A DNA stretch of 64,000 bases from Escherichia phage Pu-Krd-SF1, in sequence record PQ249395; one strand, written 5' to 3'. Both the position numbers and the translations under genes were made by a program. Of the stretch, positions 24,507 to 24,919 are shown one piece after another; the stretch's first letter is position 1, and each line of letters begins with the position of its first letter. The notes below the pieces were generated by a model. The model made no database searches and had not been told where the DNA came from. It saw only the letters and a program-made list of their open reading frames with translations.

Positions 24507-24525
24507 AATAACGCGTGGCGGAAAT

Positions 24526-24714
24526 ATGAATTTTAATTATTACCCTATTCTATTAGAAAAAGACGCGAAACAGCCAAAATGGCAAGGTCCTCAGTTTATT
24601 AAAGGTGTCTATCAATTAGTAGTTCCTAAAGACAAGATTTATAGTAGCTGTTTCACTGAATCCGCTTGCAGTATTTTCGGTAATAGTTTTCTCCGTATTG
24701 GAATTTTGACATAA
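24526..24714 (+). CDS. hypothetical ORF (62 aa) in frd-td insert
   Basis: ORF only; weak GVYQLV...KIYS resemblance to a degenerate GIY-YIG motif. Confidence 0.25.
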   Translation: MNFNYYPILLEKDAKQPKWQGPQFIKGVYQLVVPKDKIYSSCFTESACSIFGNSFLRIGILT

Positions 24715-24749
24715 AGCTGGATAGAAATATCGATATTTGGTTGAAAGCT

Positions 24750-24875
24750 ATGGATATTGGTAATATCACGTTTGATGAGAATAATTATCATATTATTGGT
24801 CGCTTTTCCAAACGCGGTAAAGAATTATATTTCGCGCCTGAAATTGAGAGAAAATTTGATGCTAAACCGTATTAA
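24750..24875 (+). CDS. hypothetical small ORF (41 aa) in frd-td insert
   Basis: Hand-translated ORF; no homology recognised. Confidence 0.2.
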   Translation: MDIGNITFDENNYHIIGRFSKRGKELYFAPEIERKFDAKPY

Positions 24876-24919
24876 TTATTAGCTTCATAAAATGTATTAT
24901 AATTTATATAAGGTACTAA

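Follow-up and report, generated by a model that had tools for sequence, protein, structure and literature searches.

A conserved small gene, probably split by a frameshift, between frd and td of the T4-like phage Pu-Krd-SF1

Genes around the frd-td segment

The DNA analysed here is a stretch of 64,000 nucleotides from Escherichia phage Pu-Krd-SF1 (PQ249395), referred to below as the window, and it is a segment of a Tequatrovirus, that is, T4-like phage, genome. Along the plus strand, gene 32 and four small ORFs are followed by frd, then by a segment of 413 bp, and then by td exon 1, the td intron with the I-TevI gene, td exon 2, nrdA.2, nrdA.1 and nrdA (Table 1). The boundary between td exon 1 and the intron was set by comparison with the 5' sequence of the T4 td intron. 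An earlier first-pass annotation of this DNA had located the segment correctly, and the two short ORFs of 62 and 41 amino acids that it described there are present. Over the 413 bp the window and Escherichia phage Pu-Krd-SF5 (PQ759885.1) agree completely (100%), and from frd through td exon 1 they share 99.9% identity.

Table 1. Positions of genes and sequence features in and around the frd-td segment of the window
Feature	Position	Strand	Remarks
gene 32	21683..22588	+	followed by four small ORFs, then frd
81-aa ORF	23680..23925	+	between frd.1 and frd; PHROG 3183 match, E 4e-43; stop overlaps frd start
frd, dihydrofolate reductase, 193 aa	23925..24506	+	from ORF list and annotation of matching records
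direct repeat copy 1, TAAATGAAA	24500..24508	+	spans frd stop (TGA 24504-24506)
two-codon mini-ORF, ATG AAA TAA	24503..24511	+	T4's td start ATG persisting at the frd stop (ATGA)
intervening 413-bp segment	24507..24919	+	between frd stop and td start
gene X, PHROG 1928 member	24526..24875	+	115 aa if intact; +2 frameshift here
N-terminal fragment ORF, 62 aa	24526..24714	+	54 native and 8 out-of-frame residues, then stop
TTTT run	24687..24690	+	TT in relatives; frame-breaking 2-nt insertion
C-terminal part of X, shifted frame	24690..24875	+	61 codons and stop; includes GRFxKxG motif and 41-aa ORF
41-aa ATG ORF	24750..24875	+	in ORF list with upstream TTG at 24741, 44 aa
candidate MotA-type middle promoter	24882..24905	+	GCTTCA-N12-TAATTT, consensus match in X-td spacer
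Shine-Dalgarno-like AAGG	24910..24913	+	6 nt 5' of td start
direct repeat copy 2, TAAATGAAA	24917..24925	+	spans td start codon (24920-24922)
td exon 1, thymidylate synthase	24920..25468	+	followed by intron with I-TevI
T4-type group I intron in td	25469..26484		holds I-TevI ORF
I-TevI ORF, intact	25600..26337	+	in td intron

Several features lie beside the segment. The 81-aa ORF upstream of frd is a second difference in gene content from T4, in which frd.1 (starting at 145762) and frd (ending at 145690) are separated by a gap of merely 71 nt. In the sister phage SF6 a homing endonuclease is annotated between the helicase-loader gene 59 and gene 32 (SF6 21056..21688), from which its equivalent in the window would lie at about 20996..21628; in T4 this is the position of segG. 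A scan of 23500-27000 against Rfam at gathering thresholds gave no match, the td group I intron included, probably because the ORF within the intron splits the model.

One gene in two reading frames

When the window is aligned with the phages FriedrichMiescher and Lutter, a single ORF of 348 nt encoding 115 amino acids occupies the same place in both relatives, and the sole difference that affects the frame is a run of four T's in the window where they have two. Beyond the two additional bases the frame that starts the gene continues for only eight foreign residues, and the remainder of the gene, including its most conserved motif, runs in another frame to the original stop (24873-24875). On this alignment the two short ORFs, which the first-pass annotation had treated as separate, are to be read as the two parts of a single gene, designated X, which encodes 115 aa and is interrupted by a +2 frameshift. 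They had also been described as having no recognised homology, and on this point the profile search gave a different answer: the N-terminal fragment matches positions 2-72 of the PHROG 1928 profile (E 5e-11) and the C-terminal fragment positions 73-125 (E 1e-19). The intact orthologue gives the significant full-length profile match by which membership of PHROG 1928 is judged, with residues 4-111 on profile positions 2-125 of 126 (E 8e-36). All the conserved residues of the family are thus encoded in the window, but across two reading frames.

The frameshift may be an artefact of sequencing or assembly, in which case the actual phage would carry an intact and functional X; we regard this as possible but somewhat doubtful. 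It would be in keeping with the position of the insertion in a T homopolymer and with its rarity, as among 285 phage records that match the site, searched with a 71-nt query across the insertion, only Pu-Krd-SF5 matched at 99% or more and carries the two bases, and the sister isolates SF3, SF4, SF6 and SF7 have a 411-nt version of the segment. It would also agree with the condition of the gene, which is otherwise undamaged: without the two T's, X differs from X of T2 by 15 synonymous changes and 1 non-synonymous change and has undergone no further decay. However, over 38.9 kb aligned with SF6 (99.57% identity) the +2 is the only isolated indel whose length is not a multiple of three, and homopolymer errors are thus not a general feature of the assembly; an error of two bases in a run of only two to four T's would be uncommon as well. 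A genuine mutation of very recent date would give the same picture, and at TTTT one error and such a mutation are indistinguishable. We infer that X has here been either very recently inactivated or mis-sequenced. Ribosomal slippage by -1 on UUUU, which would restore the frame and yield full-length X with one extra Phe, is possible in principle, but it has no support and the change is private to one record. Two further phages in which X looked split from their annotations, 132 and BYEP02, both encode it intact.

Downstream of X, td starts 44 nt past the X stop instead of overlapping frd. With this spacer and a Shine-Dalgarno sequence of its own, translation of td is not coupled to that of frd in the window, and the earlier suggestion of a small accessory gene cassette that uncoupled the two genes was essentially right. 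The spacer contains one candidate MotA-type middle promoter; patterns of this kind occur at 7 sites in the window against 2.1 expected, and a promoter is annotated at the corresponding position in the Lutter record. Scoring for sigma-70-type promoters gave none in the spacer, where the MotA-like site is the only one, and no terminator-like hairpin or stem-loop was found in 23600-25100. The segment is very probably a frameshift-disrupted copy of a conserved accessory gene, X, and behind it lies a 44-nt spacer from which td obtains a ribosome-binding site of its own and, possibly, a MotA-type middle promoter.

Distribution of X and the states of the frd-td junction

The segment was matched in 361 phage records, with 90-100% identity in 347 of them, and in these 361 an intact X lies between frd and td; T2, T6 and many RB phages are included. 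Intact X is the commonest occupant of this slot in Tequatrovirus, and the GenBank entry of T2 from 2003 has the same 413-bp gap between frd and td, unannotated. Beyond Tequatrovirus, tblastn identified homologues with 26-46% identity, and in every record opened the homologue was found directly 3' of frd: in Klebsiella phage Mexia, Salmonella S16 (Gelderlandvirus), CC31 (Karamvirus), PM2 (Mosugukvirus), Vettismorki (Winklervirus) and ZX14 (Kanagawavirus). These phages represent at least six named genera of Tevenvirinae other than Tequatrovirus. In these genera its start usually overlaps the frd stop. Five of the six phages carry, after X, a second ORF of about 115 aa (X') that is a paralogue of X (hhalign 99.2%, both in PHROG 1928), and the order frd-X-X' recurs in two metagenomic contigs, L014 and L015. 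In one metagenomic contig the array is frd-X-X'-Y-td, Y being a gene described below, and every junction in it overlaps. A literature search for the frd-td junction ORF, PHROG 1928 and the accession numbers found nothing.

PHROG 1928 members are 99-119 aa long and predicted to consist of a single domain, and the invariant residues are Q16, W19 and G27, followed by G92, F94, K96 and G98 of a GRFxKxG hairpin motif (P0001 numbering). Purifying selection on X is strong (dN/dS 0.01-0.2), and T2 and FriedrichMiescher differ in X by 13 synonymous and 0 non-synonymous changes. An exhaustive profile search of 1.84 billion representative proteins returned 48, all small phage proteins except three large ones, which are repetitive Ig-like or adhesin proteins and spurious matches; there are thus no informative domain fusions. 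Intact X had no match in Pfam or NCBIfam at E<=10 and nothing significant among PDB sequences, and an alignment of 20 members of the family gave nothing significant against Pfam (E<=1) or PDB.

A different origin had been proposed in the first-pass annotation, in which a weak GVYQLV...KIYS pattern in the first ORF was read as a possible degenerate GIY-YIG remnant and the segment as the possible scar of a decayed mobile endonuclease. Descent of the segment from a free-standing homing endonuclease is extremely unlikely. GIY-YIG enzymes have the GIY...YIG motif pair, catalytic Arg, Glu and Asn residues and an alpha/beta catalytic domain, which is joined to a separate DNA-binding domain, so that the Seg enzymes of T4 and I-TevI reach about 200-250 aa. 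X does have a G[VI]Y tripeptide near its N-terminus, records of the BASEL collection label it 'putative homing endonuclease', and real mobile endonucleases are found nearby, such as I-TevI in the td intron. GVYQLV is indeed a conserved motif of the family (G27, Y29, L31), but KIYS is not, and only G-[VI]-Y is shared with the enzymes, with no invariant R, E or N at equivalent places; the invariant residues of X are not the catalytic ones of GIY-YIG. The X profile aligned by hhalign with the I-TevI of the window at a probability of 0.3%, and a single domain of 99-119 aa with a predicted beta-barrel is of the wrong fold and size. Further evidence against a mobile-endonuclease scar is that X occupies one and the same slot across many genera and is under purifying selection. 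The BASEL label is therefore unsupported.

In T4 the segment is absent. In NC_000866 frd occupies 145109..145690 and td ends at 145112, which gives a 4-nt ATGA overlap, as the first-pass annotation had stated. The flanks of this junction are the same as those of the window on both sides, but T4 lacks 417 bp of the window (415 bp in intact relatives), and its td start overlaps the frd stop whereas td in the window has its own Shine-Dalgarno sequence and a promoter-like site. The T4 junction, TATATAAATGAAACAATACC (…GTATATAAATGAAACAATACC…), is the window collapsed on the TAAATGAAA repeat, exactly the window minus one copy of the repeat and all that lies between the copies. RB69, of another genus (Mosigvirus), has the same empty junction sequence as T4.

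In a third state the junction is occupied by Y (PHROG 9550), an unrelated gene of 68 aa that is connected to both neighbours through overlaps of stop and start codons; it is present at 95% identity or more in about 135 Tequatrovirus or Dhakavirus records. Examples are L010:2553-2759 (fFiEco06) and L014:3670-3879. Homologues occur in Klebsiella phages (79%) and in Phapecoctavirus, which is not T4-like (about 43%), so that Y seems to travel more widely than X. Three alternative states are thus seen at the frd-td junction, a polymorphic slot that is empty, holds X or holds the unrelated Y, and the T4 overlap is the least frequent of them: with a 56-nt probe spanning the T4 junction it was found uninterrupted in only 32 records, many of them T4 stocks, against 361 for X and about 135 for Y. 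In BYEP02 (L017:190-300) about 80 bp from the 3' end of frd are duplicated between the frd stop and X, a recombination footprint at this same junction.

The polarity of the difference from T4 may be argued in two ways. A recent insertion into a T4-like ATGA junction, with TAAATGAAA as a target-site or microhomology duplication and T4 as the ancestral state for Tequatrovirus, would account for the perfect 9-bp direct repeat that flanks the extra DNA, for the vestigial ATG-AAA-TAA, equal to the first two codons of td, in the copy at the end of frd, and for the empty junction of RB69. It would also fit the comparison of Tequatrovirus with the metagenomic contigs L014 and L015, in which Frd is the least similar protein (49%, against 63-66% for X, 81% for Y and 82% for Td); the greater similarity of X and Y points to lateral exchange of the slot contents and not to purely vertical descent. 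We nevertheless consider such an insertion improbable. X homologues lie in the same slot, with starts overlapping frd, in at least six other named genera, which is hard to reconcile with a recent event; a transposase, an endonuclease and terminal inverted repeats are all absent; and the empty junction is rare. TAAATGAAA is moreover a common gene-junction motif: the window has 13 copies where 3.8 would be expected, and finding it at both ends does not by itself mark any event. A transposon-like target-site duplication was rejected on this ground and on the lack of a mobility gene.

The exact match of T4 to a repeat collapse of the window, together with the wide distribution of X in the slot, favours loss in the T4 lineage by short-repeat recombination. 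The slot was probably occupied ancestrally, the fullest array seen being frd-X-X'-Y-td, and T4, RB69 and the phages with Y only would be derivatives of loss or replacement through recombination at a recurrent stop/start junction motif. This polarity, loss in T4 as opposed to gain elsewhere, is provisional; the empty junction of RB69, the frequency of the repeat as a gene-boundary motif and the signs of lateral exchange count against it. The first-pass annotation had called the segment an insert; it is extra DNA relative to T4, but the direction implied is probably backwards, since the empty junction is the minority state. The contrast in similarity between X, Y and Td on the one hand and Frd on the other also suggests lateral exchange, or a mosaic boundary, within frd or immediately 3' of it.

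Predicted role of X and comparison with known systems

A moderately confident AlphaFold2 model of X built from 20 homologues (pLDDT 78.6, pTM 0.73) predicts a small beta-barrel of eight strands and one helix. An OB fold is a closed beta-barrel of five strands with a helix between strands 3 and 4, and the model bears a weak, non-significant resemblance to the nucleic-acid-binding OB folds of RPA, Teb1, HIN, S1 and Rrp40. The family is mildly basic (median pI 8.7). In a common variant of X (phage 132, for example), which is 116 aa long, SSSYCT replaces SSCFT at residues 41-46; it looks like a compensated local frameshift and falls in the loop of lowest confidence in the model (pLDDT <50, residues 43-45).

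Our best guess, a tentative one, is that X would be a small and mildly basic protein with an OB-like beta-barrel, would bind either nucleic acid or a partner protein, would be co-transcribed and ancestrally translationally coupled with the enzymes of dTMP synthesis, and may be dispensable under laboratory conditions. The stable position of X after frd, with overlapping codons, suggests co-regulation with frd and td. About equally plausible is a role in anti-defence or host takeover, in which X would simply be a neighbour of frd and td, functionally unconnected with nucleotide metabolism; by itself this too is rather doubtful. Genes that are small, fast-evolving, dispensable, patchy and tandemly duplicated among small early and middle ORFs are typical of phage counter-defence, and X lies in such a stretch, is less conserved between genera than Td (26-46% against 74-82% identity), is absent from T4 and RB69, is patchily present and has tandem paralogues. 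Against this stand the very stable position right after frd in many genera, with overlapping stop and start codons, and the lack of a match to described anti-defence proteins in searches made without a dedicated anti-defence library. A more specific proposal, that the X/X' family serves dTMP synthesis in phages as an OB-like accessory subunit or regulator that has gone unrecognised, is quite improbable; if true, X could for example anchor Frd and Td in the replication or dNTP-synthetase complex, or could bind the mRNA of the two enzymes, and the family would have escaped notice because X happens to have been deleted in T4, the model phage.

The segment is an ordinary, already catalogued polymorphism in gene content and not the scar of a mobile element, and X is a small gene widely conserved in T4-like phages but absent from T4 itself. 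The only feature private to the window is that this conserved hypothetical gene has a +2 frameshift, whether genuine or an artefact, and in annotation the two ORFs should be given as one disrupted gene. T4 is not representative of its genus at frd-td, where its famous ATGA overlap is a minority state.

Among known systems the nearest is PHROG 1928 itself, an uncharacterised phage protein family that includes S16 gp155/gp154, CC31p239/CC31p238 and the 115-aa ORF of T2 and T6. X of the window lies in the same frd-td slot as these but, unlike them, has the +2 frameshift and would yield only a truncated product of 62 aa. The locus is a clean, small example of T-even phages swapping or losing small genes at stop/start junction motifs, and in this it resembles the PeSL + ORFan cassettes of T4-type hyperplastic regions (Arbiol et al. 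2010, PMC2839356; Comeau et al. 2014, PMC4122927), in which small uncharacterised genes are gained, lost or swapped at fixed intergenic positions between close T4-like relatives by recombination at short repeated boundary sequences. It differs from them in that X has no flanking promoter-early/stem-loop motif, and the repeated boundary at frd-td is the stop/start junction motif (TAA)ATGA(AA).
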